From the NCBI RefSeq assembly GCF_049337375.1, contig NZ_JBMPIV010000015.1: a DNA stretch of 64,000 nt. One strand, 5' to 3'. Shown piece after piece: positions 6,029 to 63,492 of this stretch. This DNA is from Nannocystis pusilla. GTDB lineage: Bacteria; Myxococcota_A; Polyangia; Nannocystales; Nannocystaceae. The position numbers and the translations under genes are program-made. Position 1 is the first letter of the stretch. The number at the start of each line of letters is the position of its first letter. The notes under the pieces were generated by a model. That model searched no databases. It had not been told where the DNA came from and saw only the letters and a program-made list of their open reading frames with translations.

Positions 6029-6179
6029 GCGCCGCCGGCGTGTGTCCCCGCGGACAGGGTCCCGGGGACATGACCGATCGGCCAGACACGTTCGCGCCCG
6101 CGCTGCGCTCGCCGCAGCCCGGGCGCGCTCGTCGTACCGGGACCTCGCGCGCGGGAACTCGCGCCTCTTGGCGCGCGAA

Positions 6180-6600
6180 CCGAGCGAAGCGCGTGGGCTT
6201 CGCCTGGCTTTGGGTTCAATGTGGCCAAGGTCGGACGGCAACCAGCGCTGCGGCAAGGCGATCCCCGGCCTTCCAGGCCGATGCGGGTTCGATCGCTGCG
6301 GCTGGCAGGCCAGCTTCGGCGCACCGTCAGACCTGGCCTTCAAGGCCGATGCGGGCTCGATCGCAGGCCGGCGCTTTGGCGCGCCGTCACGCCTGGCCTT
6401 AGGGTCATGGCGAAATCAGGGCGGGGCAGCGCCGCGGCGAGATGATGCACCTGGCCTTCGGGCCAGGTGCGCGGCTCAGGTAAGCCCGTGCTTCACGGCG
6501 CGGTCTCCTCTGGTTCGCAGCTCCCGAGGCGTCTGTCCTTTGAGCCAGGTACGTGACGCATGCGGGCCTCGGCGTGGCTTGCGGCTCAGGCGGGCGGCAG
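6180..6600. repeat. cluster of >=5 imperfect ~60-70-bp direct repeats, each containing a GGCCTTCnAGGCC / CTGGCCTTCGGGCCAG-type hairpin
   Basis: Seen directly: cctggccttcaaggccgatgcggg..., ccggccttccaggccgatgcggg..., cctggccttagggtcatggcg, ctggccttcgggccaggtgcgcggctcagg. The region is non-coding, between the ACP stop and a convergent gene. Confidence 0.6.
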
Positions 6601-7389
6601 GCGGCGGACCAGCGCGTCGGCGCGACGCCAGGCCGACACGACCAGGAGCGCCCACACGTTGAGCCCGACCGCGACCGCGAGGGCGGCTGTCCAGAAGGAC
6701 AGATCGAGCCGGACCGCCGCGGCGGCGGTGGCGACGTAGAGCAGCGCGAGGTGGGTGTCGTGGCTCAGCGGCGCCGCCATGCGCAGGGGAGGGGCCAGCA
6801 GCGAGCGGGCCGCGCCGGGAGCGGGACGGGGGCCGGTGTGCTCCGGCCCGAGCAGCGCGGCCGCGATGTCATGGAACACAGCGGGGCCGAGCCCGCGGGA
6901 CAGCGCGGCGACCGAGGGCCGCGGCGAGGGCGGCGCTGCGTCGCTGCCTCCGCCGGTCAGGTCGCGGAACCGGCGACGCAGCTCGGCGTGCAGCCCGACG
7001 TGGATCAGCGCGCTGACCAGCGCCACCGACGCGAGGGTGCAGGCCCACGGGTTGGCCGGCGCGGCTCGCAGCGTCAGCGCGACCCAGAAGGCGGCGCCGA
7101 TCGCAAACTCGAGCGTGCCGGCCTCGGCCTCCGCGGCGCCGGCGAGGAGGCGGCGACACCGGCTGGCGACGGTGAACGCGAACAACAGCCAGGCGGGGAA
7201 GATCCAGTCGACGCCGCTCGGCGCGGCCAGCAGCACGGCGACGGCGCCGGTGAGGCCGACCACGAGTCCGGCGAGGGTGAGCAGCTCGACGCTCGGCGCC
7301 GGTCGCACCCGCTCGAGGACCCACGCTGCGAGCGGCCGATGGAGGTGGCGATCGAGAGTTCCCTCGGTGATCGGATCGTCGTCGGCCAT
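6586..7389 (-). CDS. hypothetical polytopic membrane protein
   Basis: 267 aa with several hydrophobic helices. No recognised catalytic motif. Confidence 0.45.
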   Translation of the reverse strand: MADDDPITEGTLDRHLHRPLAAWVLERVRPAPSVELLTLAGLVVGLTGAVAVLLAAPSGVDWIFPAWLLFAFTVASRCRRLLAGAAEAEAGTLEFAIGAAFWVALTLRAAPANPWACTLASVALVSALIHVGLHAELRRRFRDLTGGGSDAAPPSPRPSVAALSRGLGPAVFHDIAAALLGPEHTGPRPAPGAARSLLAPPLRMAAPLSHDTHLALLYVATAAAAVRLDLSFWTAALAVAVGLNVWALLVVSAWRRADALVRRLPPA

Positions 7390-7452
7390 CGCCTCGGAGG
7401 GTGGGCGGGGCCTCGGGCCCTGTCAAGCGAGCCCCGGCGCCGCAGAAACCGC

Positions 7453-7680
7453 TCAGGAGCGCGGCTTGACGTTGTCGGGGACGACGAGCCCCTGCCCGTC
7501 GACGGTCTTCCAGAAGGCGGGCCAGCGCGAGATCTCGCGCAGCGTCGGCAGCACGTCGACGGGGTTGTGCGGGTACGTGCGGCGCAGGAACAGCACCGCG
7601 GCCTCGGCCGACGGCGCCTCGAGGAAGTGCGCCTCGCCGGGCGGGTACTCGTAGCGGAATTTCAGGAGAGGCGGGGTCAC
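7453..7680 (-). CDS. small hypothetical protein (75 aa)
   Basis: GTG start overlaps the upstream stop (GTGA). Non-low-complexity C-terminus ...FLRRTYPHNPVDVLPTLREISRWPAFWKTVDG. Confidence 0.4.
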   Translation of the reverse strand: MTPPLLKFRYEYPPGEAHFLEAPSAEAAVLFLRRTYPHNPVDVLPTLREISRWPAFWKTVDGQGLVVPDNVKPRS

Positions 7681-8285
7681 GGGGCGGGCTTCCGACGGTG
7701 GGTATCCCACAGCACTTCGGGGACGGCGAAGGCGTGGGCCGCGGCGCGGGCGACGACGAAGAACCAGTCGCTCAGGCGATTGATGTAGCGGACGGCCTCG
7801 GGGCGGACCGGCTCGACGCGGGCGAGGGCGACGACGTTGCGCTCGGCGCGGCGGCACACGGTGCGCGCGAGGTGGGCCCAGGCGCCGAGCGGCCCGCCGC
7901 CCGGCAGGATGAAGCTGCGCAGCGGCGGCAGGTCGTGGTTCCACGCGTCGAGCTCGTGCTCGAGGCGCGTGACGTCGGCCTCCTCGACCTTGAGCGGCGC
8001 CTTGCCCTCGGTCGCGCCGGGCGTCGCCAGCTCCGCGCCGAGGTCGAACAGCTCTTGCTGGATCCGCGCCAGCGAGGCGTCGAGCGCGGCCAAGAACTCG
8101 CTGCGCTCGCCGGGCTCACCGACGCGGGAGAGCTCGACGCGCAGCACGCCGATCACCGCGTTGAGCTCGTCGACCTCGCCGTAGGCGGCGACCCGCGGGG
8201 TGTCCTTGCCGACGGTGTCGCCGCTGGCGAGCATCGTGTCGCCGCGGTCGCCGAACTTCGTGTAGACCTTGCTGATGTAGACCAC
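7677..8285 (-). CDS. pduO: ATP:cob(I)alamin adenosyltransferase, PduO-type
   Basis: N-terminal MVYISKVYTKFGDRGDTMLASGD matches the PduO/MMAB signature (KIYTRTGDKGETSL). Confidence 0.85.
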   Translation of the reverse strand: MVYISKVYTKFGDRGDTMLASGDTVGKDTPRVAAYGEVDELNAVIGVLRVELSRVGEPGERSEFLAALDASLARIQQELFDLGAELATPGATEGKAPLKVEEADVTRLEHELDAWNHDLPPLRSFILPGGGPLGAWAHLARTVCRRAERNVVALARVEPVRPEAVRYINRLSDWFFVVARAAAHAFAVPEVLWDTHRRKPAP

Positions 8286-8338: not shown

Positions 8339-8380
8339 CAGGGACATGCCCGCAAGGACATGTCCCTCAGGACAGTCGGC
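8339..8380. repeat. GGACATGTCC-family palindromic repeat array
   Basis: cagggacatgcccgcaaggacatgtccctcaggacag. Confidence 0.7.
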
Positions 8381-9310
8381 TCAGCGGCCCTTCAGCGCGG
8401 CGATGAGGCGCGGCTGGAGCTCGGGGATGATGACGAACACCCAGCCCAGCTGCGCCTTGACGCCGTCGACGAGGATCGCCCAGCGGTGGCGCTCGTCGAG
8501 CTCGATGACGAAGATCAGGAGGCCGTTGTCGCCCTCGATGATGAACTTGTTGATGCCCTTGGCGAGGGCGTCCTCCGAGCGGGTCAGCGCGTTGTGCAGC
8601 TGCTCGGACAGGCGGTTGAACATGGCGCACGCCTTGGGCGCCGAGTTGATGCCCGCGAGCGACATGCCCGAGGCCTTGCTGATGATGTCGACGCTGATGA
8701 GGCCGCCCATGAGGTGGTCGTCGAGCTCCTCGAGGATGGCCTTCACGACCTTGAGGTCCATGTCTGACAGCTCCTTGTCGCGCGCTGCAACGTTGGGGGC
8801 GGCCGCGTAGGCCGGCGTCGGTGGGGTGATGGGCAGCGGCGGAAGTGGCGGGACGGTGACCGGCGCAGCTCGCTGCGGCTTCTCGATCACCGGCACCGGC
8901 GGAGGGGAGGGCGGCGTCGCGGTGCGTGGCGGCGGCTCGCTGCGCGGCGGCGGCTCGCTGCGCGGCGGCTCGCTGCGCGGCGGGGGCTCGTTGCGCGAAG
9001 CCTCGTCGCGCTGACGGGCCCGGTCCATCAACAACGCGACGATCGAGGTGTGTCGCACCGTCTGCGGGCAGTTCTCGGGCAACTGCGAAGACGAGACGCT
9101 CCCCTCGCGCCAGTCGAGGATCGTGTTGACGGCGTCGTCACCCTGGGCCGCGCCGGTCTCGGCGTGGACGAGGTTGCCGCCCTGGAAAAACATCGCGCCG
9201 ACGCCATGCGGCGACTCGACGGACAGCTTGATCGACATGCGCGACGTCTGCGCAAGTTGCAGGATGTCCCAAAGTTCAAATCCACCGATCTGGGCGATCG
9301 TGGTTGCCAT
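8381..9310 (-). CDS. DUF4388 (N-terminal) - Pro-rich linker - Roadblock/LC7 (C-terminal) fusion protein
   Basis: N-term FELWDILQLAQTSRMSIKLSVE...GAMFFQGGNLVHAETG (DUF4388-like). EPPPRSEPPRSEPPPRSEPPPR repeats. C-term LKVVKAILEELDDHLMGGLISVDIISKASGMSLAGINS (Roadblock-like). ATG 9310 has a GGGGAGG RBS. Confidence 0.65.
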   Translation of the reverse strand: MATTIAQIGGFELWDILQLAQTSRMSIKLSVESPHGVGAMFFQGGNLVHAETGAAQGDDAVNTILDWREGSVSSSQLPENCPQTVRHTSIVALLMDRARQRDEASRNEPPPRSEPPRSEPPPRSEPPPRTATPPSPPPVPVIEKPQRAAPVTVPPLPPLPITPPTPAYAAAPNVAARDKELSDMDLKVVKAILEELDDHLMGGLISVDIISKASGMSLAGINSAPKACAMFNRLSEQLHNALTRSEDALAKGINKFIIEGDNGLLIFVIELDERHRWAILVDGVKAQLGWVFVIIPELQPRLIAALKGR

Positions 9311-11636: not shown

Positions 11637-11980
11637 GGCGCGCGGGTCAGCGAGGGCCACGCGATCGCGGTCGCCAGACCCAGCAGGCCGAGGCCGGCGG
11701 CGCTGACCCAGAGGGCAGGTCCTTCCGGACATGTCGTGCTGGACAGGCACACCGCGGCGGTCGGCGCGAACAGGACCAGGGCCAGCGCGAGCGCGAAGCC
11801 GAGGCCGGCGAGCGCGAGGAGGCCGCCGGTGTCGACGGGCTGGCGCGGGCGCAGCTGCACCAAACTCTCGCCGGTGTCGGTCGCGGCTTGCTGCCTCGCC
11901 CGGGCGCGGACCAGGCCGGCGAGGACCCCGATGAGCCCGACGGCTGCGACGAGCGGCAGGTAGTCGAGCAGGGGGCCCAT
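11633..11980 (-). CDS. small membrane protein (115 aa, 3 TM)
   Basis: ATG directly abuts the macro-domain gene stop (TAA-ATG). Its stop overlaps the downstream start (ATGA). Confidence 0.55.
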   Translation of the reverse strand: MGPLLDYLPLVAAVGLIGVLAGLVRARARQQAATDTGESLVQLRPRQPVDTGGLLALAGLGFALALALVLFAPTAAVCLSSTTCPEGPALWVSAAGLGLLGLATAIAWPSLTRAP

Positions 11981-21837: not shown

Positions 21838-22719
21838 TCAGGGGCTCGCCGGGGTGTGAGAGGGATGCCGGAGGGCCACGCGCAGCAGCGTCTTCAGGCG
21901 CGCGTTGCCGACCCGCTTGCCGATCGCGGCCGGACCCGCGGGCCGCTCCCACTGCGGGGGCGGTCGCCCGGCGAGGGCGGCGAGGCGAGCGAAGATCTCG
22001 CGCCGCGGGGTGTGGTCGTCGTCGACGACGTTGATGACGCCGCGCTCGTCCGGCGCGAGGGTCAAGGCGGCGAGGACGGCCTGCACTGCGTCCTCGCAGT
22101 GGATGAGGTTGGTCGGCTGCATGCCGTCGCCCGCAAGGACTGCGTCGTCACCGGCGCCGCGGTAGAGGCGGAACAGCTCGCGACCCGGACCGTAGAGGCC
22201 GCCGAGGCGGAGGATCGTCCATGGCACTGCGTGGCGCGTGCAGGTGTCTCGCACCAGCTCCTCGGCCTCGCGCTGCACGCGACCTCGCGGCTCGTCGGGC
22301 CACTCGAGGCAGTCGTCGTCGAGCCACGCGTCGCGGTCGGGCAGGGCCGAGGTGGACGAGGTGTAGACGAGGCGGGTGAGCGGGAGGGTGACCGCGGCGG
22401 CGAGCAGGCGCCGGGTGCCCTCGACGTAGAGCTCGCGGCGGTCCTGCTGCTTGCCCGGGGCGTAGCAGACGACCAGCGACTGCGCGCCGGCGAGGACCGC
22501 GGCGATGTCGGCCGGGGCGAGCGCGGCGACGTCGAGCGGGCGGAGCTCGATGCCTTCCGGGACATGTCCTTGCGGCCATGTCCCGGAGCGCGTGGTCGCA
22601 AGGACAGGCGGATCGCCGACGCCGCCGGTCGCCGCGAGCGCGGCGGCCACGGGGGCGCCGAGGAAGCCGGCGCCGACGACGGCGACCGGGCGAGCGAGAG
22701 GGGACCCGCCGCTGGGCAC
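21838..22719 (-). CDS. NAD-dependent epimerase/dehydratase family protein
   Basis: N-terminal VAVVGAGFLGAPVAAAL Rossmann fold. Putative GTG start 11 nt after the upstream stop. Confidence 0.6.
   Translation of the reverse strand: MPSGGSPLARPVAVVGAGFLGAPVAAALAATGGVGDPPVLATTRSGTWPQGHVPEGIELRPLDVAALAPADIAAVLAGAQSLVVCYAPGKQQDRRELYVEGTRRLLAAAVTLPLTRLVYTSSTSALPDRDAWLDDDCLEWPDEPRGRVQREAEELVRDTCTRHAVPWTILRLGGLYGPGRELFRLYRGAGDDAVLAGDGMQPTNLIHCEDAVQAVLAALTLAPDERGVINVVDDDHTPRREIFARLAALAGRPPPQWERPAGPAAIGKRVGNARLKTLLRVALRHPSHTPASP
22550..22600. repeat. GGACATGTCC-family palindromic repeat array
   Basis: ccgggacatgtccttgcggccatgtcccggag...aaggacagg. Confidence 0.7.
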
Positions 22720-24377: not shown

Positions 24378-24432
24378 GGGACATGTCTGTCGCGACATGT
24401 CCGCCGCGACATGTCCTTCAGGACTCGCGGAA
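24372..24432. repeat. GGACATGTCC-family palindromic repeat array (3 units)
   Basis: gagggacatgtctgtcgcgacatgtccgccgcgacatgtccttcaggac. Confidence 0.75.
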
Positions 24433-33325: not shown

Positions 33326-34564
33326 ATGTGGCTTAGAACATGGTATATTGGACATGTCCTTGGGTTCATGGCTTTCATGACAGGTTGCGATCCGAAGGAC
33401 CCGGGGGTCACGGGCGGGACGCCCGGCGAGGGGACGACCACGGGTGGGACCGACAGCGACGGGACGACCGCCGGCGGCGGGAGCGACAGCGAGGGGACGA
33501 CGAGCGCGGCGGAGACGACCGAAGGACCGGACGAGACGACCGGCGGACCGGGCGACGCGACGACCGAGACGACGTCGGGAGGGCACGACACCGACTCGGG
33601 GTCGACGCCGGAAGACTTCGCGTGCGAGGGCGGAGCGTGGCTGTTCGTCGATCCGGAGACGAGCGGCGCGGGCAAGGTGTCGCTCGCGGCCGACGGGCGG
33701 GCGCGGGTGTTCAGCGACGGCCTGTCGCGCGAGTTCGACGCGGCGGGGACGCTGGTGGCGACGGTGCCGATCTCGTCGGGGGCGGCCCACTGGGACATCG
33801 ACGCCGCGGGCAACGGCTACGCGATGTTCCGCGACGAGGACGGGGTGTCGCCGCGGAAGTGGCTGCGCAAGTTCGACCCGGCCGGGGTGATGCTGTGGGA
33901 GCGCGACCTGGGGCCGCGCGATCAGGGCTACGCGTGGGGCTACGACATCGCGATCGCGGCCGACGGGACGACGGTGTACAGCGACGGCGCTGCCGTCGGC
34001 GACGGGACGCGGATGATCAAGCACGCGGCCGACGGGACGCTGCTGTGGGACCTCGAGGTCGTGGACCAACTGGAGGTGGTGGCGATCGGGGCGTCGGGAG
34101 CGATGGCGGCGCTGGTGTGGAACGAGGGGGTCCGGCTGCTCGACCCGTCCGGCGCGGAGCTGTGGACGCGCCCGTGGGAGCTCTCGGTGCTCAGCACGGC
34201 GGCGATCGACGGCGCGGGCGCGGTGGTGGTCGGGGCCCAGATCGGGTCGTCGGGGGTGAGGATCGGGAAGTTCGCGGCTGACGGGACGCCGCTGTGGGAC
34301 TCGATCGTCGAGGACATGTGGAGCTTCGGCGACGTCGCGGTCAACACAAGCGGCGAGATCGCGGTCGGCGGCCACCACAACAACGATACCCCGTTCCGCG
34401 GGATGGTGGCGCGGCTCGACCCGTCCGGCGCGACGCTGGCGGCGCACCGCTGCGACAGCGGGTCATGGGAGGTCGACGTCGCGATCGACGACGCGGGGAC
34501 GATCTTCGCGTCCGGCGCGGTCGACTTCGAGACCTATCACATGTACGTGACGGCGTACGAGTGA
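33326..34564 (+). CDS. lipoprotein with Gly/Thr-rich linker and beta-propeller-like repeats
   Basis: FMTGC lipobox. GAGGAG RBS 8 nt upstream. AT-richer start region. Confidence 0.55.
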   Translation: MWLRTWYIGHVLGFMAFMTGCDPKDPGVTGGTPGEGTTTGGTDSDGTTAGGGSDSEGTTSAAETTEGPDETTGGPGDATTETTSGGHDTDSGSTPEDFACEGGAWLFVDPETSGAGKVSLAADGRARVFSDGLSREFDAAGTLVATVPISSGAAHWDIDAAGNGYAMFRDEDGVSPRKWLRKFDPAGVMLWERDLGPRDQGYAWGYDIAIAADGTTVYSDGAAVGDGTRMIKHAADGTLLWDLEVVDQLEVVAIGASGAMAALVWNEGVRLLDPSGAELWTRPWELSVLSTAAIDGAGAVVVGAQIGSSGVRIGKFAADGTPLWDSIVEDMWSFGDVAVNTSGEIAVGGHHNNDTPFRGMVARLDPSGATLAAHRCDSGSWEVDVAIDDAGTIFASGAVDFETYHMYVTAYE

Positions 34565-34654
34565 GTCAAAGGTCGAGGGCTCGCGGCAGGCCGGCTGCCG
34601 CGAGCTGGCTCGAAGGACAGGTCGCTTGGCCGCGCTGCGCGGCAGGCTGACGTC

Positions 34655-36433: not shown

Positions 36434-36701
36434 GTGCGCCAGAGTAGCACCGCGGCCCGCGGGCGCAGGGGGTTGAACCAGGCCCCGGAGGCGCAGGGGA
36501 CAAGGCGACGTCGCGGGGATGCGCGCGTGAGGTTGGCGAGAGGGCGCGACGCCGATGGGCAGGCTCAGGCGTGAGGCGCACGTGTCGGGGGCGCGCAGGT
36601 TAGGCTGGTTGAAAGGACAGGACCTCGAGGACAGGACCTCAGGGACATGGCCGAGGTGAGGCGCCGGCCAGGGCTCGCGTGAGGCTGGTCGAAGAGACAG
36701 G

Positions 36702-37325: not shown

Positions 37326-37344
37326 GACCCCGAGAGCGTGACCT

Positions 37345-40235: not shown

Positions 40236-40368
40236 GATGACTTCGGGGGCATGTCCGTTCGGGCATGCCCCTTCACACATGTCCGAACCGCTCGAGGCGC
40301 GGTGCCTGGAATTCAGCGCATGCCTTTTCGGGCATGTCTGAGCGGCCATGTCCTTGGGGTCATGGCCC
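40236..40368. repeat. GGACATGTCC-family palindromic repeat array (two 3-unit arrays)
   Basis: ggcatgtccgttcgggcatgccccttcacacatgtccgaacc...gcatgccttttcgggcatgtctgagcggccatgtccttggggtcatggcc. Confidence 0.75.
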
Positions 40369-40941
40369 GCCGGACAGGGTCACGTACAGCACCGGGACGG
40401 CGATGCCGAGCAGCACGAACACGCCGCCGCGGCCGACCAGGCCCTTGCGGCCGGGCAGCATGAACAGGCCCGAGGCGGCGAGGAACAGCAGGAACACGGC
40501 GTAGCCGTCGGCGATGTAGGTCCAGGCCTTCTTGCCGCGGTTCAGGTGCAGCCAGTTGGCGACCCGCAGCAAGAGGCGCGGGCGCTGGCCGTCCTCGAGG
40601 ACGACGCCGCTGTCGAGGTCGACGTGGAGGGTGCTGCCGTCGAGGAGGATCGACAGCTCCCGCGCGTCGCTGCGGTAGACCTCGGTCGGCGGGCGGGGGA
40701 GGGCGAGCTCGGCGAGGACCTTGTCGGCGGCGGCGCGGTCGTCCTCGGGCAGCGGCACGGCGACCTGGTGGCGCGCCTCGTAGTTGTCGAAGTTCGGGTC
40801 CCAGTCGGCGATGTGATTGACCGCGAGGCCCGACAGCGCGTAGACGAAGGTGAGGCCGACGGCGACGTAGCCGATGTCGCGGTGGAGGGCGCGCAGCCAC
40901 GGCCGCCAGCGGACCGGGCGCCGGCGCTCGGGCTCAGGCAT
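40360..40941 (-). CDS. PepSY-associated TM-helix membrane protein
   Basis: WLRALHRDIGYVAVGLTFV motif. Overlaps the upstream Mo-enzyme gene. Confidence 0.55.
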   Translation of the reverse strand: MPEPERRRPVRWRPWLRALHRDIGYVAVGLTFVYALSGLAVNHIADWDPNFDNYEARHQVAVPLPEDDRAAADKVLAELALPRPPTEVYRSDARELSILLDGSTLHVDLDSGVVLEDGQRPRLLLRVANWLHLNRGKKAWTYIADGYAVFLLFLAASGLFMLPGRKGLVGRGGVFVLLGIAVPVLYVTLSGGP

Positions 40942-42104: not shown

Positions 42105-42283
42105 GGCTTGCTGTCCTTCGGGGCATGGCACAAAGGACATGTCTCTTCGGCTAGGCGCACCAGCCAGCCGCAGCGGGCGCAGGCGGCCGCGGGGGTCGGC
42201 TCGGGCAGGTCGGGGGCGCCGGCAGGCTCGTCCAGCGCGGGCAGCTCGAGCTGCTGCTGGGCGAGGTTGCGCGCGCGGGACAC
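42101..42283 (-). CDS. small zinc-ribbon protein (CxxC...CxxC)
   Basis: CARCGW...CPLCH. Its 3' end coincides with a GGACATGTCC-type repeat. Confidence 0.4.
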   Translation of the reverse strand: MSRARNLAQQQLELPALDEPAGAPDLPEPTPAAACARCGWLVRLAEETCPLCHAPKDSKP

Positions 42284-43391: not shown

Positions 43392-44888
43392 TCAAGCCCT
43401 GCGGGCCGCAGCGCTCGCCCACGCCCGCAGGGCCGTGATTTCGCCGGCACGACTGCGACTGAGCGGGATGGTCGCGGCGAGCGCGCGAGCGAGGTCGCGG
43501 CGCGCGAGCGGTCGCGACTCGGCGAACGCGTCGAGGCGAGCCTCCACGATCGCGCCCTCGATCTCGGCGCCCGAGAGTCCGTCGGCCGCGCGCACGAGGT
43601 CGACGAGGTCGGGCAACGGATCAGCGAGGACCGGGGCGGCGCCCATGTGCGAGCGCGGCGCATGCTCGAGATGGATCTCCGCGATGGCAGCGCGTTCGTC
43701 CGCATCGGGCAGGTCGACGAAGAAGATCTCGTCGAGACGGCCGCGACGTGTCAGCTCGGGCGGCAGACGCGTGACCTGATTGGCGGTGGCGACCACGAAC
43801 ACCGGACGACGGCGCTCCTGCAGCCACGTCAGCAGGCCGCCCAGCACGCGCGCCGCGGTGCCGGCGTCGCTGGCCGGGCCCTCGCTGCCGGCCAGGCCCT
43901 TGTCGAGCTCGTCGATCCACAGGGCGACCGGAGCGATGCGCTCGACCGTCGCGGTGACGCGGCGCAGGTTGGCCTCGCTCTCGCCGAGCGTGCCGCCGTA
44001 GAGCCGGCCCGGCTCCAGCCGCAGGAGGCCGAGGCCGAGCGCGTGGGCGCAGACGCGGGCCGCCAGGCTCTTGCCGCAGCCCTGCACGCCGACGAGCAGG
44101 ACGCCGCGCGGGTCGGGGATCGCCGCGGCGCGGGCCTCGGGGCGGAGGGCGAGGGCGCGGCGGGCCAGCCACTGCTTGAGCTGCGCGAGGCCGCCGAGCA
44201 TGTCGGAAGGGACAGGTTCGACGCGCTCGAGCAGACCGCCGCGGCGCAGCAGCTCGGCCTTGCCGGCGCCGAGCTCGGCGAGCGCGGCGTCGTCGGCGGG
44301 GACGTGGGCGGCGCGGCGCAGCAGTCGACGGGCCTGGTGCTCGGACAGGCCGAGCGCGGCGTGGGCGAGCTGCGAGGCGCGGCGATCGAGCGCGGCGGCA
44401 GGGCCGGGACGGCCGGCGATCCGCAGCTCGTCGACGAGGTCGGCGGCGAGGCCGGTGAGCTCGTCGGCGTCGGGCAGCTCGAGCTCCAGCAGCTCGAGCT
44501 CGGGGATGGCGACGAGCGCAGGCGCGAGGTCGCCGACGACGACGACCGCGGGCCCGACGCTGCGCTGCGCGAGCTCGCGGAGGGCCCGCAAGGCGACGGG
44601 CTCGAGCGGCGGCGGATCGAGCAGCACCCACAAACCGGGATCGGGGTCGCGCAGGAGGCCGCGCAGGAGGTCGGCCAGCGGCTCGGGGGCGCCGAGGCCG
44701 TCGCGCCCGCCGGCGGCGCTCCAGGTGTGGACGGGCCAGTCGAGCCGCTCGCCGACGTCCTCGCACAGCCGCAGCGCCCGCGCCTCGTCGACCGCGCGCA
44801 GGCCCAGGCCGCGCGCCCCGGCCTGCAGCGCCTCGCGCAGGCGGAGGCGCGCGCGCGCGAACGGGGTGTCCTTCAGGTCATGTCTCAT
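43392..44888 (-). CDS. AAA+ ATPase with ~230-aa N-terminal domain of unknown function
   Basis: Walker A GVQGCGKS, Walker B LWIDELDK, and sensor-2 RRGRLDEIFFVDLPD. Confidence 0.75.
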   Translation of the reverse strand: MRHDLKDTPFARARLRLREALQAGARGLGLRAVDEARALRLCEDVGERLDWPVHTWSAAGGRDGLGAPEPLADLLRGLLRDPDPGLWVLLDPPPLEPVALRALRELAQRSVGPAVVVVGDLAPALVAIPELELLELELPDADELTGLAADLVDELRIAGRPGPAAALDRRASQLAHAALGLSEHQARRLLRRAAHVPADDAALAELGAGKAELLRRGGLLERVEPVPSDMLGGLAQLKQWLARRALALRPEARAAAIPDPRGVLLVGVQGCGKSLAARVCAHALGLGLLRLEPGRLYGGTLGESEANLRRVTATVERIAPVALWIDELDKGLAGSEGPASDAGTAARVLGGLLTWLQERRRPVFVVATANQVTRLPPELTRRGRLDEIFFVDLPDADERAAIAEIHLEHAPRSHMGAAPVLADPLPDLVDLVRAADGLSGAEIEGAIVEARLDAFAESRPLARRDLARALAATIPLSRSRAGEITALRAWASAAARRA

Positions 44889-44926
44889 AGCGCATGTCCT
44901 TCGGACCATGTCAGCCACGCGGCCAG
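44866..44926. repeat. GGACATGTCC-family palindromic repeat array
   Basis: gtgtccttcaggtcatgtctcatagcgcatgtccttcggaccatgtcagcc. Confidence 0.7.
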
Positions 44927-45628: not shown

Positions 45629-45629
45629 G

Positions 45630-47567: not shown

Positions 47568-47840
47568 GGCCTGCTTTCGGGCTCCTTTCGCCGGGCTCGC
47601 CGCGCCGCGTCATGGTTTTCGGACCATGTCTCAAGATGCAGTCCGTCGCACACGCGACCTGCGCAGTGGCCCGCGGTCCGGTAACGCCGCTGGGTGGTCT
47701 TTGAGACAGAGGCCGACGGGGCCTGCGCCAGGCTACGCGGCGCGTTTCCGCGCGAGGGCTGAGATAATCTTCTCGGCCACGATCGGGTGCGCATCAGCTT
47801 GCCAAGGCGGATCCCCTGTGTGACCTTCAGTCTGCGGCGC

Positions 47841-49474: not shown

Positions 49475-49475
49475 G

Positions 49476-51318: not shown

Positions 51319-51319
51319 C

Positions 51320-52408
51320 ATGGTGGCGATCCTCGAGCTGGTGGAGTCGATCGCGCTGCGCGTCGATGCCGACGGCAAGGTGACCCCGGCGTCGCCGGCG
51401 GCGGCCCGCTGGCTGGCCGCCCGCCCCGGCGCGCCCAGCCTCGGCGCGCTGTTCGGCGCCGCGTCGCCGGCGTTCCTGCGCAGCCTGGCCGAGAGCAGCG
51501 GCAAGGCGGTGCCCGAGAATCCCTGGCCCGAAGGACCTGTCGCATGGGACCTGTCCTTGGAGCCCTCCGACGGGGTGCTGGCGGTGGGCGTCGCCATCCG
51601 CTCGCCGCGGGCGCTGGCGTCGCAGCTGGCGACCGCGACCCTGCTCGACAAGAGCCTGGCGCTGGCGGTGCTGCCGCGCGAGTCGGCGGCGCCGCTCGGC
51701 GAGCGGCTCCAGCCCAAGGCCTACCGCGAGTCGACGGTGATGTTCATCGACGCGGTCCAGTTCTCGCGCCTGGCCGCCCGCGTCGACCCGGTCACCTGCC
51801 TCAAGCAGCTCGACTTCTTCTTCTCGGCCTTCGACCAGATCACGTCGGCGTTCGGGGTCGAGAAGCTGCGCACCGCCGGCGACACGTACGTGGCGGTCTC
51901 GGGCATCCCCCACCGCCGCCTGTCGCACGCCGTCGACGCGACGTTCGCCGCGCTGCGCTGCGCCCAGGTGGTGGCGTCGGGGCTGACGCCGATCGTCGAC
52001 GAGTGGGACTGGAGCTTCCGCATCGGCCTCCACTCGGGCCCCTGCATCTCCGGCGTGCTCGGCTCGAAGAAGCCGGTCTACGACCTGTGGGGCGACACCG
52101 TCAGCGTCGCCAGCCACGTCGAGCGCGTCGGCCAGCCCGACTCGGTGTGCGTGTCCGGGGCGGTCCGTCAGCTCATCGAGCCGTTCTTCTCGCTCGAGTT
52201 CCTGCAGACGACGGTGACCCGCAGCGTCGGCGAGATCGAGGTGTTCGCGGTCCGCGGGCTGCTCCCCGAGCTGCAGGCCGACGACCAGGCGGTGGTCGCC
52301 AACGCCGAGTTCACGGCCCGCTACGAGGCGCGCTTCGGCTCGCCGTGCCCGACCGCCGCCCAGGAGGCCCTCGGGGTCGAGCTCGGCCAGGGCCTCGACG
52401 AGTTCTGA
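51320..52408 (+). CDS. class III adenylate/guanylate cyclase with N-terminal unknown sensor region
   Basis: VMFIDAVQFSRL, KLRTAGDTYVAVSG, GLHSGPCISGVLGSKKPVYDLWGDTVSVAS. Confidence 0.8.
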   Translation: MVAILELVESIALRVDADGKVTPASPAAARWLAARPGAPSLGALFGAASPAFLRSLAESSGKAVPENPWPEGPVAWDLSLEPSDGVLAVGVAIRSPRALASQLATATLLDKSLALAVLPRESAAPLGERLQPKAYRESTVMFIDAVQFSRLAARVDPVTCLKQLDFFFSAFDQITSAFGVEKLRTAGDTYVAVSGIPHRRLSHAVDATFAALRCAQVVASGLTPIVDEWDWSFRIGLHSGPCISGVLGSKKPVYDLWGDTVSVASHVERVGQPDSVCVSGAVRQLIEPFFSLEFLQTTVTRSVGEIEVFAVRGLLPELQADDQAVVANAEFTARYEARFGSPCPTAAQEALGVELGQGLDEF

Positions 52409-52417: not shown

Positions 52418-52452
52418 GAGGGCATGTTCATCCGGACATGTCCTCTCGGTCC
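52418..52452. repeat. GGACATGTCC-family palindromic repeat array
   Basis: gggcatgttcatccggacatgtcctctcgg. Confidence 0.7.
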
Positions 52453-53030
52453 AGGTGGTAGTCCTTGAACAGGTAGGCGTAGAAGCCGACGACTTCGCGC
52501 AGCAGCGACCACGGCTCGCGCAGCTCGAGATCGAGGTCGGCGTGCGCGCCGGTGGCCTCGACGCCGAAGCGGCGCAGCGCCAGCTTGGTGCGGGTGACGT
52601 GGTAGTACTGGCTGACGGCGATGGCGGAGCGTTCGCCGCGGGCGCGCAGGTCGGCGGCGACGAAGCGGGCGGTGGCGTGGGTGTTGACGCCGCCGCGGTC
52701 GACGGCGATCCGCTCGACCGGGACGCCGCGGGCGACCAGGTAGTCGCGCATGACGTCGGCCTCGTGCGGGCTGCCGGGATCCTGGCCGCCGCTGACGATG
52801 AGGCGCGGGGCGAGGCCGGCGGCGTACAGGGCAGCGGCGCGGTCGAGCCGCAGCTGGAGGCGGCGCGAGGGCTCACCGGCGGGGCTGACGTGATTGCCGA
52901 GGACGACCGCGACGTCGGCGGGGCGGTCCTCGTCGGTGCAGCCGTCGACGGCGATGACGAGCAGGTGGACGAGGCCCCAGACGCACAGGAGGGCGAGCAG
53001 GCGGAGGATGTACTTTCGCACCTGGCGCAT
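52428..53030 (-). CDS. DUF218/YdcF (SanA/ElyC) family protein
   Basis: VAVVLGNHVSPAGEPS...IVSGG pattern with an N-terminal TM. Confidence 0.65.
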   Translation of the reverse strand: MRQVRKYILRLLALLCVWGLVHLLVIAVDGCTDEDRPADVAVVLGNHVSPAGEPSRRLQLRLDRAAALYAAGLAPRLIVSGGQDPGSPHEADVMRDYLVARGVPVERIAVDRGGVNTHATARFVAADLRARGERSAIAVSQYYHVTRTKLALRRFGVEATGAHADLDLELREPWSLLREVVGFYAYLFKDYHLDREDMSG

Positions 53031-53041
53031 GGGACCTGTCC

Positions 53042-54067
53042 TCAAGGACCTGTGATTTCGCCGGCCGGCGGGCGCACGGGCAGGCAGTCGAGCCGGGCGG
53101 TCTCGGGGTCGTAGCGGAAGGTTTCGTGGCGGGCCAGGAGGCGGCGCGCGTAGGCGTGCAGGCGCTCGGGTCGCATCGATCGCCACGCGACGCCGGCGGC
53201 GCCGGTGGTGTCGAACAGGCGCACGCGGCCGAGGCGATCGCGGGCGGGGTCGACGATCATCATGTGATGGTACATGCGCTCGCCGCCGCGGGCGCGGGCC
53301 CGGTGCGAGACGCTGCAGAGGTGGAGCGCGTCGGGGACGAGGGCGGCGATCAGGGCGTCGGGGTCGAGCTCGGCGAGGCGCAGGTCGAGCAGCTCGAGGC
53401 CGCGCGGGAGGGCGTCGGCGGGCAGGCGGGCCGCTATCTGCAGGAGGGCGGCGCGGCCGGCGTGGGCGCCGTCCTGGCACGACTCGAAGCCGCCGGGCGG
53501 GTCGCAGGGCACGAGGTCGGCGAGCTCGAGCCGCGGCAACCACAGCAGGCGGACGCCCTCGAGGAAGCCGCCCAGGCAGCCGAGGTCGTATGTCCCCGGG
53601 GACAGCTGCACGGGGCGGCCGGCGTCGGTGCGGCAGAAGCCGGCGGGTTCGTCGAGGCGGATGTGGCCGAGGCGCTCCCAGGCGTCGATCTCGGCCCAGC
53701 GATCGGGTTCGAAGGCGAGCTCGAGGCCGCGGAAGATCGCGGCAGGTTCGCGCGCGCGCAGGCCCGCGGCGAGCACCTGCGGGACGCGGGGGTAGTGCGC
53801 GAGCGAGGGCCAGCGCGCCAGGAGGTCGAGGTCGCGGGCGCCGACCGGCTCGCGGTGGACGGTCGGGCGAGGCGCCGGCGAGGTCCCGCGCGTGAGGTCG
53901 AGGTCGGGGCGGCCGTGCGGATCGAGGTGACCGATCGGGCGCGGGGCGGCGGGCGAGGTCGGGGCGGTCGCGTCCTCTTCGGGCGCAGCAGCGGGCGCCG
54001 GCTCCCCGCAGGCGAGCGCGGCCACCAGGCCAGCCGTGAGCACCCGAGGGTCGCGCACGGGAGGCAT
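53042..54067 (-). CDS. lipoprotein, hypothetical
   Basis: LAC lipobox. Confidence 0.45.
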   Translation of the reverse strand: MPPVRDPRVLTAGLVAALACGEPAPAAAPEEDATAPTSPAAPRPIGHLDPHGRPDLDLTRGTSPAPRPTVHREPVGARDLDLLARWPSLAHYPRVPQVLAAGLRAREPAAIFRGLELAFEPDRWAEIDAWERLGHIRLDEPAGFCRTDAGRPVQLSPGTYDLGCLGGFLEGVRLLWLPRLELADLVPCDPPGGFESCQDGAHAGRAALLQIAARLPADALPRGLELLDLRLAELDPDALIAALVPDALHLCSVSHRARARGGERMYHHMMIVDPARDRLGRVRLFDTTGAAGVAWRSMRPERLHAYARRLLARHETFRYDPETARLDCLPVRPPAGEITGP

Positions 54068-54249: not shown

Positions 54250-54480
54250 ACGAGCGCCGCGCCGGCGCTCGCTGGGCGGGGGCCATGAGCTGTCGCCCTC
54301 ACTGCCCTCGAGGACATGTTTAAGAGGACATGCTCGGTGGAGCATGCCCTCTTAGAAATGTCGGAAACCGCGCCGGCGCTCGCTGGGCGGGGGCTATGAG
54401 CTGTCGCTCTCACTGCCCTCGAGGACATGTTTAAGAGGACATGCTCGATGGTGCATGTCCTTTAAAAAATGTTTGAACGG
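54250..54480. repeat. ~110-bp tandem direct duplication (2 copies, ~93% identical), each carrying GGACATG-type palindrome units
   Basis: ccgcgccggcgctcgctgggcgggggc[c/t]atgagctgtcgc[c/t]ctcactgccctcgaggacatgtttaagaggacatgctcg[g/a]tgg[a/t]gcatg[c/t]cc... Confidence 0.85.
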
Positions 54481-54501
54481 ACAGGGCCGGAGGGCCAGGT
54501 G

Positions 54502-61114: not shown

Positions 61115-61261
61115 GCGACTGTCCCGCGGGACATGGCCTGCGGGACAGGCGCGATCTGTTCGCCGCGCCTGCCAGCTCGGCCACGCGACCGGCGCGTCCA
61201 GGTCGGTCGCAAGCCCGACCGCTCCGTCGTGAGCAGGAGCGCGGAGGGGCTCCGAGAGCGC

Positions 61262-61336
61262 GGGTGGCTCTCGGGGCATGTCAAAAAGGGCAGGTTCGAT
61301 GGGGCATGTCGCCGAGGACATGCCCGAGAGGTCACC
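61262..61336. repeat. GGACATGTCC-family palindromic repeat array
   Basis: ggggcatgtcaaaaagggcaggttcgatggggcatgtcgccgaggacatgcccgag. Confidence 0.7.
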
Positions 61337-61619: not shown

Positions 61620-61749
61620 CGCTGTCTCCTTCGTGGCGCGGTCGCCGCGCCGTGCCGCGCGAGTATAACCCCGTCCTCGGGGGTCGCCACGAACCGGCGA
61701 CGGCAGGCGGGCGGTCTGCGCGGGCTCGCCGCGGGGCCTGGCCCAAAGG

Positions 61750-62535
61750 TCAGGCGCCGGTGAACTTCGCCGCCCGGCGCTCGACGAACGACTGCATGCC
61801 CTCGCGCGCGTCGTCCGAGCCCATGATCGCGCGGACCTCGGCCATCATGCCGGCGAGGGCGGCCTCGGGGCCGCGCTCCACGGTCGTGCGGGCGGTGGCG
61901 AGGGTGGCCCGCACGCCGAGCGGGGCCTGGGCGGCGATCGTGGCCGCGATCTCGGCCGCCCGCTCGACCTGCTTGCCGGGCTCGACCACTTCCTGCGCGA
62001 GGCCGATCCGCAGCGCCTCGGCGGCGTCGAACATGTCGCCGGTGAGGAGCCAGCGCATCGCGTTGCCCCACCCGGCCACCTGCGGCAGCCGCAAGGTCGC
62101 GCCGCCGAACGGGAAGATCCCGCGCCGGATCTCGATCTGGCCGAAGCGCGCGTCGCTGGCGGCGATCCGGATGTCGGCGGCCAGCATCAACTCGATGCCG
62201 AGGGTCAGACAGTAGCCCTGGACGGCCAGCACGACCGGCTTGCTGCGCACGCGCCCGTGGAGGCCGAGCGGGTCGACCGCGCCCGCGGGGAACAGCGGCT
62301 CGCCGCGCGCGACGGCGGGGCCGACCTCGGCGAGGTCGAGGCCGGCCGTGAAGTGCTCGCCGTGGGCGAACACGACGGCGCAGCGCAGCTGCGGGTCGTC
62401 CTCGAATTCGGTGAAGGCCTCGGCCAGCTGCCGCAGCATGGCGAGGTCGAAGGCGTTGCGCTTGGCGGCGCGGTCGAGGCCGATCATCCGCACGTGGCCG
62501 TGTGTCTGGGTCGAGATCCGGCGGTCCGTGGACAT
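61750..62535 (-). CDS. enoyl-CoA hydratase/isomerase family protein
   Basis: Crotonase motifs (AAKRNAF; AVQGYCLTLGIELMLAADIRIA). Confidence 0.8.
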   Translation of the reverse strand: MSTDRRISTQTHGHVRMIGLDRAAKRNAFDLAMLRQLAEAFTEFEDDPQLRCAVVFAHGEHFTAGLDLAEVGPAVARGEPLFPAGAVDPLGLHGRVRSKPVVLAVQGYCLTLGIELMLAADIRIAASDARFGQIEIRRGIFPFGGATLRLPQVAGWGNAMRWLLTGDMFDAAEALRIGLAQEVVEPGKQVERAAEIAATIAAQAPLGVRATLATARTTVERGPEAALAGMMAEVRAIMGSDDAREGMQSFVERRAAKFTGA

Positions 62536-62656
62536 GCGCGCGAGCATACACCGCGAGACGGGGCGGCGGGAGGATGTGATGTCTGAAGGGACATGGTGAA
62601 AGAGACAGGCGATGAGGCGACCGATCGGGGGCGGTGAAAGCTGGTATCGTGGCGGC

Positions 62657-63418
62657 ATGGCGGACGAGCCGACGGGAGAAGAAATGATGGCCGCGCTCAT
62701 CGAGCTGCACCGCGGGCTCGAGCGCATGGGGCCGGGAGACACGCAGTTCAGCCGGGAGATCCTGGCGGGCTTGCCGGCGCTGCCGGAGGCGCCGCGGATC
62801 GCCGACCTCGGCTGCGGCGCGGGGGCCGGGGCGCTGCTGCTGGCGGAGACGTTCGGGGCGCCGGTGATCGCGGTCGATGGGTTGCGGGCGTTCCTCGACC
62901 AGCTCGAGGCGCGGGCGCATGAGCGCGGGCTCGCGTCGCTCGTGCGCGCGGTGGAGGCCGACTTCGGCGCGCTCGACTGGCCGGCCGGATCGCTCGACTT
63001 GCTGTGGTCGGAGGGGGCGGCGTACCACCTGACGTTCGCCGGCGCGGTACAGCGCTGGCGACCGCTGCTGGCGCAGGGCGGGGTCGCGGTGATCTCGGAG
63101 GCGAGCTGGTGGACCGAGACGCCGGCCGCGGCGGCGCGCGAGTACTGGGCCGCCGGTTATCCGGCGATGGGGACCGAGGCGACGAACGCCGCGCACGCGC
63201 GTGAGGCGGGGTTCGCGGTGCTGGGCGTGCACCGGCTGCCGGCGCGAGCGTGGTGGGACAACTACTACGGGCCGCGCCTGCGCCGGGTGGAAGAGGTCCG
63301 TGAGACGGCGGACGCGGCGATGCGCGCGGCCATCCGCGAGACGGAGGCGGAGGTGGCGATGTTCCGCGCGCACGCCGACGACTACGGGTACTCGTTCTAC
63401 GTGCTGCGGGCGGTGTGA
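62657..63418 (+). CDS. class I SAM-dependent methyltransferase
   Basis: DLGCGAGAGA motif I. Confidence 0.75.
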   Translation: MADEPTGEEMMAALIELHRGLERMGPGDTQFSREILAGLPALPEAPRIADLGCGAGAGALLLAETFGAPVIAVDGLRAFLDQLEARAHERGLASLVRAVEADFGALDWPAGSLDLLWSEGAAYHLTFAGAVQRWRPLLAQGGVAVISEASWWTETPAAAAREYWAAGYPAMGTEATNAAHAREAGFAVLGVHRLPARAWWDNYYGPRLRRVEEVRETADAAMRAAIRETEAEVAMFRAHADDYGYSFYVLRAV

Positions 63419-63423
63419 GTGGA

Positions 63424-63492
63424 TGCTGGTCGATAGGACAGGTGATGGTTATGATGGAAGGGACATGACTTGAAGGACATGTCCTTCGATTT
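63424..63492. repeat. GGACATGTCC-family palindromic repeat array
   Basis: ataggacaggtgatgg...gaagggacatgacttgaaggacatgtccttcga. Confidence 0.7.

Follow-up and report, generated by a model that had tools for sequence, protein, structure and literature searches.

Short palindromic repeats recur throughout a 64,000-nt stretch of the genome of Nannocystis pusilla Na p29 (the window), raising the question of whether they form a genuine family and what such a family might do. An earlier note described units spaced ~15-16 bp apart in almost every intergenic region, and offered three interpretations: a REP/MITE-like element, a nucleoid-protein or restriction-modification site, or the operator of an abundant regulator.

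A decamer in a fixed register

The GGACATGTCC repeat family is real and far exceeds chance. The window holds five exact copies where 0.05 are expected, and 72 copies with at most two mismatches where 25.7 are expected. Scanning with a PWM at a threshold of 9 bits yields 41 matches, compared with 2 for the reversed sequence and 5.2 for Markov simulations, and neighbouring units lie exactly 14 bp apart in 23 pairs against an expected 0.01. At E<=0.01, a covariance model (CM) detects 17 separate loci, and about a quarter of its matches in the window lie in real coding sequence. By extrapolation, each Nannocystis genome would carry ~3,000 copies. No description of such an element in Nannocystis was found in the literature searched, and no Rfam family matches it. 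The existence of the family is thus borne out, and each locus listed earlier has at least a degenerate in-register copy. The proposed period is not: units are spaced by 14 bp in 148 cases, and spacings of 13, 15, 16 or 17 bp are absent from both the window and 0.85 Mb of Nannocystis DNA.

Each unit is a 10-bp self-palindromic decamer followed by an unconstrained 4-nt spacer (information content ~0 bits), giving the period of 14 bp. Information is restricted to the decamer arms, with loops and flanks essentially random. Departures from the consensus are mostly uncompensated; variant units remain palindromic, with complementary changes in 57% of double deviations, and direct arrays of the non-palindromic variants GGACAGGACC and GGACCTGTCC are also present. 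Decamer positions 3-6 are the most informative, and the central CATG is best conserved, staying in register even in degenerate, poorly pairing arrays. This persistence of CATG is also compatible with a protein that reads double-stranded DNA. Indeed, palindromic units and variants, absolutely fixed spacing with a free spacer, a conserved CATG and direct variant arrays would all suit a protein-binding array in which a symmetric dimer on each decamer touches its neighbor 14 bp away and serves at gene ends as a bidirectional roadblock to transcription, a domain boundary or a nucleoid protein.

CATG is a common methyltransferase target, and the information peak at positions 3-6 would fit a restriction-modification or orphan-methyltransferase motif centred on CATG/ACATGT. 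However, such sites are usually avoided rather than amplified, and 3'-end placement, pairing and register would all be left unexplained, making this the least probable of the alternatives.

Placement at gene ends

With genes called by a home-made GC3 caller, which agreed with independent gene calls at the one locus compared, arrays of at least two units occupy 91 of 137 convergent intergenic regions (66%), 61 of 327 co-directional ones (19%) and 11 of 112 divergent ones (10%). Array densities are 9.7, 1.8 and 0.9 per kb, respectively, and 0.11 per kb in CDS. Co-directional regions carry the array at a median of ~27 nt past the upstream stop and ~250 nt ahead of the next start. In the window, at E<=0.01, arrays occur in five of eight convergent and none of eight divergent regions, and all 13 intergenic matches lie downstream of a stop codon. 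The earlier note was therefore right that the arrays are not tied to promoters, and wrong to place them in nearly all intergenic regions, with no difference among divergent, convergent and tandem gene pairs; dependence on gene orientation is strong. An abundant regulator's operator is contradicted by this depletion in divergent, promoter-bearing regions and by the post-stop placement. The 3'-end bias is limited to units with an in-register neighbor at 14 bp and is absent for single units. Such a need for at least two units would again suit a protein-binding array, as for cooperative binders such as MetJ.

The decamer is also over-represented within CDS, with 200 matches against 119+-7 in synonymous shuffles and 22 perfect copies against 1.3. 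This excess, the location of pairs at gene ends and the lineage specificity would fit a decamer akin to a DNA uptake sequence, which a transformation receptor would favour across the genome and which would accumulate as terminator pairs, as the DUS and USS of Neisseria and Haemophilus do. We consider this very unlikely, as single units are just modestly enriched without positional signal, and the fixed 14-nt register is given no rationale.

None of the elements in the window is assigned a strand ("." throughout). The best CM match (39.3 bits on both strands) is the two-unit hairpin GGACATGCCC gcaa GGACATGTCC at 8342..8365, 16 nt past the stop of 8381-9238(-), with an RNA fold of -18.6 kcal/mol (z=-3.9). 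Three units at 24379..24416 (PWM; TRF period 14) occupy the 40-bp gap between the stops of the convergent 23799-24377(+) and 24418-25329(-), folding as a single long hairpin (-31.1 kcal/mol, z=-5.8). A two-unit hairpin with a 15-bp stem at 52420..52443 (PWM; CM; fold -26.4 kcal/mol, z=-6.9) lies 12 nt past the cyclase stop and overlaps the final codons of the convergent DUF218 gene. Convergent regions also hold two degenerate units at 6052..6075 (PWM; CM E=0.0048), 24 nt past the stop of the PP-binding (acyl-carrier-type) gene 5762-6028(+), and three units at 40247..40284 (PWM; fold; CM), 39 nt past the stop of the DLH hydrolase gene 39426-40208(+). At 40330..40381, 3-4 units (alignment with L105; CM 30.2 bits) overlap the stop of 40360-40941(-). 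A 55-56 bp insertion (~4 x 14) between these last two arrays is absent from the close relative L105, and its length leaves the units in register.

Several other elements likewise follow stop codons. A two-unit hairpin at 63461..63484 (PWM; fold; CM) lies 43 nt past the methyltransferase gene 62657-63418(+); one strong and one weak unit at 61129..61152 (PWM; CM E=0.13) and 3-4 units at 61274..61325 (PWM; CM E=1.7e-4) lie 15 and 160 nt past the epimerase gene 60089-61114(+). Three units at 36615..36652 (PWM; TRF; CM), two of them the direct variant GGACAGGACC, form a weak hairpin (z=-1.4) 50 nt past the TetR gene 36702-37325(-). Past the stop of 54502-56586(-), a 111-bp segment is locally duplicated in tandem (54257-54472), and each copy contains one array of 4-5 units (54312..54488; PWM; TRF; CM); a four-unit copy forms a single hairpin with complementary spacers (-31 kcal/mol). 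Two units at 53032..53055 (PWM; CM E=4e-4) sit at the 11-bp junction between 53042-54067(-) and 52428-53030(-), and three degenerate units at 44876..44913 (PWM; CM E=0.13) at the junction of 43392-44888(-) and 44885-45628(-). One weak and one strong unit at 42121..42144 (PWM; CM E=0.11) lie upstream of 41700-42104(-), overlapping a called 71-aa ORF at its 3' end. A solitary perfect decamer at 33350..33359 (exact-copy search; PWM), which precedes 33368-34564(+) by 9 nt in a divergent region richer in AT, belongs with the single units, which lack 3'-end bias.

Of the intragenic copies proposed previously, the one in the adenylate/guanylate cyclase gene holds: two GGACCTGTCC-type units at 51533..51556 (PWM; CM) lie in frame in the conserved N-terminal region and encode EGPVAWDLS, a peptide conserved in homologues at 66-85% identity. 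The two-unit element GGACAGGTCC cgga GAACATGTCG at 2588..2611 (PWM 10.0/10.0; CM 27.7 bits, E=7e-5) is instead intergenic or at a gene's 5' edge, 158 nt past the stop of 1189-2430(+) and immediately ahead of the start of 2614-3294(+); GC3 falls to 0.5-0.7 upstream of ~2610, so the stretch holding it is non-coding. A third, 59495-59530, is a single weak unit. Further intragenic copies comprise one perfect and one singly mismatched unit at 22560..22583 (PWM; CM 36.9 bits; fold -24 kcal/mol, z=-6.1), in frame within CDS 21838-22719(-) and encoding TWPQGHVPEG downstream of a GxGxxG motif; three units at 11713..11750 (PWM; CM E=2e-5) within the 115-aa ORF 11633-11980(-), where GC3 is high; and two weak units at 44196..44219 (PWM; CM E=0.0046) within CDS 43392-44888(-).

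Base pairing between units

In 130 two-unit elements that stand isolated, base pairing between the outer flanks is seen at rates of 55% (expected 29%, z=6.8), 46% (z=4.5) and 34% (z=2.3) at the three positions, while in these elements pairing is at chance for the units' own flanks, the 4-nt loop and direct-repeat comparisons. In an independent count, covariation scored 0.161 (against 0.099+-0.007), a value that none of 500 shuffles reached. The outer bases covary as pairs, unlike the spacer and own flanks, which identifies a hairpin of 10-13-bp stem and 4-nt loop as the functional unit: with decamer starts 14 nt apart, the stem is the decamer plus 1-3 covarying pairs, and the loop is four free nucleotides. 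Covariation across the pair, not within the unit, is the signature of base pairing rather than protein contacts, and the analysis yielded no candidate protein, which makes the protein-binding array unlikely; a nucleoid-protein or restriction-modification site also leaves the covariation unexplained. The loop is strictly 4 nt, a length that a simple hairpin would not demand.

RNA folds range from -18 to -31 kcal/mol (z -3.7 to -6.9). Perfect stems of at least 9 bp mark 68% of array-bearing 3' ends, compared with 7% where 3' ends lack arrays and 2% in divergent regions, and canonical hairpin-plus-T terminators are at chance (3 against 3.6 expected); the elements are therefore essentially the sole hairpins at gene ends. 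A U-tract was looked for after the hairpin and is absent. G:U versus A:C counts in co-directional contexts reveal no strand asymmetry (77 vs 74) and the loops no stable-tetraloop bias, so selection at the RNA over the DNA level has no positive signature.

Lineage, parallels and a possible role

The element is confined to Nannocystis and its near relatives: in a scan of 185,579 species genomes for perfect tandem pairs, 100 of 103 loci belonged to Nannocystis or related MAGs. At orthologous loci both perfect decamers persist, whereas loop and flanks have diverged; the species share a conserved stem sequence, and unit number varies in phase. At the cyclase operon end (52420..52443), the array is kept in relatives down to ~67-74% protein identity and gone at <=56%. 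Array regions turn over rapidly between strains that are 96% identical.

This turnover would suit selfish REP/REPIN-like elements, single-stranded DNA hairpins spread by a Y1/HUH (RAYT-type) or other transposase with 3' insertions tolerated, as would the missing RNA-strand asymmetry, the parallels with REP/BIME (hairpin form, many copies, extragenic 3' placement, clustering) and the in-frame intragenic copies, which are also known for Rickettsia palindromic elements. However, the indels are in-phase multiples of 14 bp, pointing to slippage rather than transposition, and occupancy of two-thirds of convergent regions goes well beyond what tolerance alone suggests. Unlike in REPIN populations, information lies only in the 10-mer arms, with random loops and flanks; the loops are diverse and a master copy is absent, which argues for a selected signal over recent copy-paste. 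The asymmetric GTAG/CGTC-type head is missing, and the transposase search suggested earlier, with E. coli RayT as query, gave no match in a 0.88-Mb Nannocystis sample in which perfect elements are enriched. Selfish spread is thus improbable. Of the three interpretations first offered, the REP-like one comes closest, the elements being abundant, extragenic, hairpin-forming and at 3' ends, and the operator falls away. The MITE half was also rejected: terminal inverted repeats, target duplications and a 100-400 bp body are all absent.

REP/BIME and REPIN elements of Enterobacteria and Pseudomonas are likewise short, clustered, high-copy extragenic palindromes that form hairpins in convergent and co-directional gaps, and REP/BIME elements are linked to mRNA 3'-end stability and attenuation. 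The Nannocystis element differs in having no conserved head tetranucleotide, orientation, conserved loop or master sequence, no RAYT in the 0.88 Mb sample, and more transcription-unit ends occupied. MetJ metbox arrays, like other tandem palindromic operators, share head-to-tail palindromes, fixed spacing and the need for at least two units, but they lie in promoters of few loci, whereas the Nannocystis elements are promoter-depleted and number thousands. Inverted DUS/USS pairs, which act as terminators in Neisseria and Haemophilus, are also lineage-specific 10-mers (~0.1-1 copies/kb) that often form hairpin pairs downstream of genes; they lack, however, both self-palindromy and a fixed register, and genes contain many copies.

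On our best reading, the closest functional analogue is TRIT, the Tuberculosis Rho-independent terminator motif of Mycobacterium (Gardner et al. 2011, PMC3152330), with 147 copies and a function that is itself predicted. Both hairpins are conserved in sequence and structure, closely tied to stop codons, limited to one genus, palindromic and therefore bidirectional, and make up most structured gene termini; the TRIT authors also inferred additional machinery that reads the stem (PMC3152330). The Nannocystis element belongs to another organism, is presumably unrelated in sequence, would be ~20-fold more numerous by extrapolation, lies mostly just past the stop rather than just before it, and has self-palindromic decamer arms in a fixed 14-nt register, often amplified to arrays. 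The 'I-shaped' terminators or HS-U-lack ends of Streptomyces similarly place strong stem-loops without a U-tract at transcript ends of a GC-rich genome, occur as bidirectional pairs, and may either terminate transcription or protect the ends of RNAs terminated by Rho (PMC8269248). Those hairpins vary from gene to gene, whereas Nannocystis reuses one consensus stem genome-wide.

We therefore favor, with a probability of roughly 55% and on sequence evidence, a sequence-defined bidirectional hairpin that would end or protect transcripts and whose stem would be read by a host factor. Two GGACATGTCC decamers make up the hairpin, which lies directly downstream of stops at transcription-unit ends, foremost between convergent genes. 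It is most likely transcribed into the mRNA 3' end, where it would halt RNA polymerase or, after Rho-type termination, block 3'-5' exonucleases; longer arrays would arise by in-phase local duplication and then decay. The putative host factor is inferred because the stem sequence itself is conserved, although a genome of 72% GC could supply more stable stems than these A/T-containing ones. Several observations count against this reading: the hairpin has no U-tract, which mycobacterial RNA polymerase reportedly needs (PMC3993855); TRIT predictions matched few mapped 3' ends in M. tuberculosis; and the uncompensated departures from the consensus, the persistence of CATG in poorly pairing arrays, the strict loop length, the copies in coding sequence and the lack of strand asymmetry or tetraloop bias weigh the same way. 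The elements probably mark transcript ends and, being symmetric, would serve transcripts of either strand.

A decamer repeated in a 14-bp register

At 72% GC, the window carries far more copies of the palindromic decamer GGACATGTCC than expected, with 5 exact copies against 0.05 and 72 copies at two or fewer mismatches against 25.7. A symmetric weight matrix for the unit, built from neighbouring units so that circularity is avoided, detects 41 sites of at least 9 bits, whereas the reversed sequence has 2 and first-order Markov simulations give 5.2. The repeat family described in the earlier note thus exists at a frequency beyond a Markov background, and all the loci listed there hold at least degenerate in-register copies. 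The period of about 15-16 bp reported there is nevertheless wrong, as 23 adjacent unit pairs lie exactly 14 bp apart (0.01 expected) and none in the window are spaced by 10-13 or 15-17 bp. Tandem Repeats Finder independently assigns a period of 14 to five arrays. When 100 further loci are added to the window (0.85 Mb in all, the sample for the statistics below), the 14-bp spacing is seen 148 times and spacings of 13, 15, 16 and 17 bp not once.

Each unit consists of a 10-bp palindrome followed by four free nucleotides. Among 518 near-perfect units, the ten core positions hold 1.4-2.0 bits each with the central CATG on top, the four spacer positions only 0.01-0.10 bit each, and flanks and loop at most 0.1 bit per position. 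Solitary units in this sample (218) are outnumbered by units in runs of two or more, of which 223 have two units (about 100 of them the seeds by which loci were fetched), 41 have three, 21 have four and 18 have five, up to a maximum of 7. A covariance model matches 17 window loci at E<=0.01; extrapolated from 17 loci per 64 kb to an 11.9-Mb contig, this corresponds to roughly 3,000 copies, and the element would cover most transcription-unit ends.

The family is confined almost entirely to one genus and its kin. A scan for GGACATGTCC-N4-GGACATGTCC in one genome per species, across 185,579 species, returned 103 loci, 100 of which belong to Nannocystis species (pusilla, exedens, punicea, bainbridge, radixulma, RBIL2) or to Nannocystaceae/Myxococcales MAGs, the remaining three being close to the chance expectation. 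Because these seed pairs were chosen by their decamers alone, their context, flanks and loops are unbiased, and seeds were removed wherever ascertainment mattered. Viral contigs yielded one match, a direct repeat; its contig is 66% GC and has no further perfect decamer nearby, which makes a chance occurrence probable. In the literature searched, which covered the motif, Nannocystis repeats, and REP/RAYT or Term-seq in myxobacteria, the element was not found, and the decamer is known there solely as a p53 half-site. Contig JAPNKE010000002.1 of N. pusilla Na p29 encodes, at about 3.46 Mb, a protein identical to one from the window.

Placement at the ends of genes

Genes were called with a GC3-based caller, which agrees with independent gene calls at one compared locus. 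Arrays of at least two units are present in 91 of 137 convergent intergenic regions (66%), 61 of 327 co-directional ones and 11 of 112 divergent ones (10%). The density of units with an in-register neighbour falls correspondingly from 9.7 through 1.8 to 0.9 per kb, and to 0.11 per kb in coding sequence. Co-directional arrays lie a median of ~27 nt past the upstream stop and ~250 nt ahead of the next start, which puts them at transcription-unit ends, not promoters. The window itself is an unbiased sample for placement by covariance-model search: 13 of its 17 loci are intergenic, all 13 downstream of a stop, and matches at E<=0.01 occur in 5 of 8 convergent regions and 0 of 8 divergent ones. The original observation is real and strong, with both period and placement misread. 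Its author was right that the arrays are not tied to promoters, and wrong that they are indifferent to gene orientation, as they are specific to 3' ends. Operators of an abundant regulator, one of the explanations offered at the time, are rejected by this same placement at transcription-unit ends. Elsewhere in the window, two copies of the 19-bp GAGTGAGCACTCACTTGCA, with the palindrome GAGTGAGCACTCAC within, look like the TetR operator pair; they lie at 37335-37410, where a TetR-family gene, 36702-37325(-), and a FAD monooxygenase gene, 37418-38980(+), diverge, and are ~97% conserved in a related strain.

Copies inside genes do occur, and 4 of the 17 covariance-model matches fall in real coding sequence. 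These may be insertions, exaptations or products of convergence. One, at 22560, falls 3' of a GxGxxG motif within coding sequence, and another, at 51533, encodes EGPVAWDLS in the conserved N-terminal region of an adenylate/guanylate cyclase. The cyclase copy adjoins a 16-residue clade-specific insertion and its encoded peptide is nevertheless conserved, leaving it ambiguous as evidence of insertion. In N. exedens, the cyclase orthologue, compared here with window 51320-51556, is annotated by NCBI as a 283-aa protein starting just past the intragenic element; the 79 codons 5' of that start show a GC3 of ~1.0, and their conservation extends to homologues of 51% identity, so the deposited start is probably too far downstream. 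An excess inside genes, the mark of DNA uptake sequences (DUS/USS), is modest here, with 200 decamer matches in coding sequence against 119±7 in synonymous-codon shuffles, and solitary units are without positional bias, at 0.19-0.58 per kb in every region class.

A GC-rich hairpin shortly 3' of a stop codon is a feature of intrinsic terminators, and it is present. The U-tract of 7-9 nt expected right 3' of the stem is absent: T reaches 0.37-0.40 at +1/+2 only, returning to background further out, and this rise is mirrored by A at -2/-3. Scanning 20 kb for the consensus of a hairpin with a T-run gave 3 sites versus 3.6 expected, none of them at arrays. At 72% GC, 3' ends cannot be told from divergent regions by the minimum free energy of their best local hairpins, and perfect stems (at least 9 bp, with 3-8-nt loops) were counted instead. 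Such stems occur at 68% of 3' ends with arrays, 7% of other 3' ends and 2% of divergent regions, and family elements are thus essentially the sole strong hairpins at gene ends in Nannocystis. Among the few hairpins there that do not belong to the family is a conventional 12-bp perfect GC stem, CTCGCGGCAGCC...GGCTGCCGCGAG, at 34565-34610, directly past the stop of 33368-34564(+).

A hairpin of fluid array structure

A self-complementary word placed twice, four bases apart, is a direct and an inverted repeat at once, and within the decamers the two readings are confounded. Compensatory-change tests there are uninformative, as direct identity and mirror complementarity climb together and variant units are themselves self-palindromic. 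The flanks of isolated two-unit elements (n=132, 130 distinct) separate the readings. The base immediately outside the left unit and the one immediately outside the right unit pair in 55% of elements versus 29% after permutation (z=6.8), the second positions in 46% (z=4.5) and the third in 34% (z=2.3), while a unit's own two flanks, both spacer ends and every direct-repeat comparison stay at chance (|z|<=1.6). Independent pair counting gives a covariation score of 0.161 versus 0.099±0.007, equalled by 0 of 500 shuffles, and 195 cells changed on both sides versus 127±12. As the outer flanks covary and the controls do not, the functional unit is a hairpin around the 4-nt spacer axis, with a stem of 10 bp extended by 1-3, at times 6, covarying pairs and a 4-nt loop.

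The clearly hairpin-forming elements of the window have predicted RNA folds of -18 to -31 kcal/mol (z -3.7 to -6.9). Weaker folds are predicted for the direct-variant array at 36615 (-14.4 kcal/mol, z -1.4) and for the element at 63461 (-12.3 kcal/mol, z -3.2). One long hairpin is predicted both for a three-unit and for a four-unit array. Covariation across whole palindromes shows no uniform register in the small samples of arrays of 3-5 units, and in arrays of at least three units some spacers are direct copies, which together point to in-phase slippage in the longer arrays. Direct pairs of a non-palindromic variant, GGGACCTGTCCCCAGGGACCTGTCCCCGGAG, also occur, in five to eight copies over ~1 kb, at positions 2900-3900 of locus L045 and 6800-7700 of locus L086, inside 3 kb that lack any confidently called gene; Nannocystis sp. 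RBIL2 shares this conserved arrangement with N. pusilla. Window 11109-11333 holds a 60/120-bp tandem repeat (3.5 or 1.8 copies), again where no gene is confidently called.

Over short evolutionary distances, arrays change faster than their surroundings. A strain 96% identical to the window retains 97.5% identity in coding sequence, ~97% in promoter regions and 85% in intergenic sequence; its differences are concentrated in array regions and include replaced spacers, and an array length difference of 55-56 bp (about four units) keeps the 14-bp register. At one orthologous locus in three species both perfect decamers are kept, with divergence in the loop (gcga versus gaac) and the flanks. Elsewhere, at ~85% identity, orthologous intergenic regions of both species carry arrays that cannot be aligned and differ in unit number. 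The cyclase belongs to an operon conserved in Nannocystis and more distant relatives (window 47787-52408 and loci L111-L116), comprising a protein with a GRAS-family Pfam match, a small ORF, a SpoIIE-type phosphatase, two further small ORFs and the class III cyclase, always last. After its stop codon there are two units in N. pusilla, five degenerate units in a relative with 85% cyclase identity, one or two at 74%, one degenerate unit at 67%, and no array in relatives at or below 56%. Judging from this graded series and the orthologous loci, array presence is conserved within the genus and array structure is fluid, with the stem sequence held at consensus.

Nannocystis sp. RBIL2 and N. pusilla are 96% identical away from two breaks in synteny, each of which has an element within ~20-100 bp (4359-4399 of locus L031 and 1239-1342 of locus L056). 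This proximity may be fortuitous, or it may reflect a proneness of the elements to recombine. A 111-bp tandem duplication at window 54257-54472 (1.9 copies, 92% identical) carries an array of 4-5 units in each copy; it has no copy elsewhere in 0.88 Mb of Nannocystis DNA and is merely a local duplication, not a dispersed MITE.

Relation to known elements and level of action

The suggestion of a REP- or MITE-like family holds in part. Like REP and BIME sequences, the elements are short, extragenic, imperfect palindromes that can form hairpins, occur in high copy number and share their placement. The asymmetric head (GTAG/CGTC-type), conserved loop and master copy of classical REPs and REPINs are all absent from this symmetric element with diverse loops, which rules that class out. 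Such a family would also come with a cognate single-copy RAYT (Y1 transposase) gene flanked by the repeats. A tblastn search with E. coli RayT had no match in 0.88 Mb of Nannocystis sequence, less than 1% of the DNA in the genus, and a transposase gene may lie elsewhere in these genomes. A MITE would bring a body of 100-400 bp, terminal inverted repeats, target-site duplications and kinship to an IS. The elements measure 24-90 bp, can occupy a gap of just 40 bp and share no conserved body, and are therefore neither MITEs nor IS ends. Rfam has no family matches in the window.

By analogy, the best functional counterpart is TRIT, the Tuberculosis Rho-independent terminator motif of Mycobacterium, which is likewise palindromic, conserved in sequence and structure, located at gene termini and restricted to its genus; the likeness is one of functional class, not homology. 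Its function is still unproven. The discoverers took its conservation as a sign of additional machinery (PMC3152330). A strong hairpin without a U-tract in a high-GC host also recalls Streptomyces, where such hairpins mark transcript 3' ends (PMC8269248). Unlike these systems, the Nannocystis element has self-palindromic arms in a fixed register, is amplified into arrays and, by extrapolation, reaches ~3,000 copies covering most transcription-unit ends.

Placement right past stop codons and at convergent junctions favours a role at the RNA level. The elements bear no signature of the RNA strand in co-directional contexts, where sense-strand G:U and A:C mismatches are equal (77 versus 74), and neither strand is enriched in GNRA or UNCG loops; loop A+T is 48% in a 72% GC genome, matching the expectation for unpaired bases. 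A role at the DNA level, through a single-stranded hairpin or a protein binding the double strand, is conceivable but less likely. A symmetric protein reading each decamer could account for the self-palindromic arms, the invariant loop length and the survival of CATG in degenerate arrays, as could a factor that must read one stem on transcripts of either strand. Under the twin-domain model, positive supercoiling at these sites would disfavour cruciform extrusion. Most likely, from the sequence patterns at hand, the element is a bidirectional, sequence-defined hairpin of the TRIT/REP kind, specific to Nannocystis, which would end or protect transcripts.

It is conceivable, if rather unlikely, that this hairpin is a coded transcript-end signal, in which the GGACATGTCC stem, as RNA or DNA, would be read by a dedicated protein that thereby stops transcription or sets the 3' ends of most transcription units in either direction. 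Elsewhere, SLBP reads the histone mRNA stem-loop, and mTERF and TTF-I act as DNA roadblocks; to our knowledge, no factor-dependent, sequence-specific termination system is known in bacteria.

How transcripts end in high-GC bacteria that lack canonical U-tract terminators is an open question, and a practical one for myxobacteria, given their use in natural-product engineering. Across the whole genus Nannocystis, a single 24-nt consensus appears to mark most transcription-unit ends. It could serve as a compact bidirectional terminator part in myxobacterial synthetic biology, help to annotate operon ends and start codons, and flag metagenomic contigs as belonging to the genus Nannocystis. A recognising factor, should there be one, would represent a new type of machinery for termination or 3' ends in bacteria.
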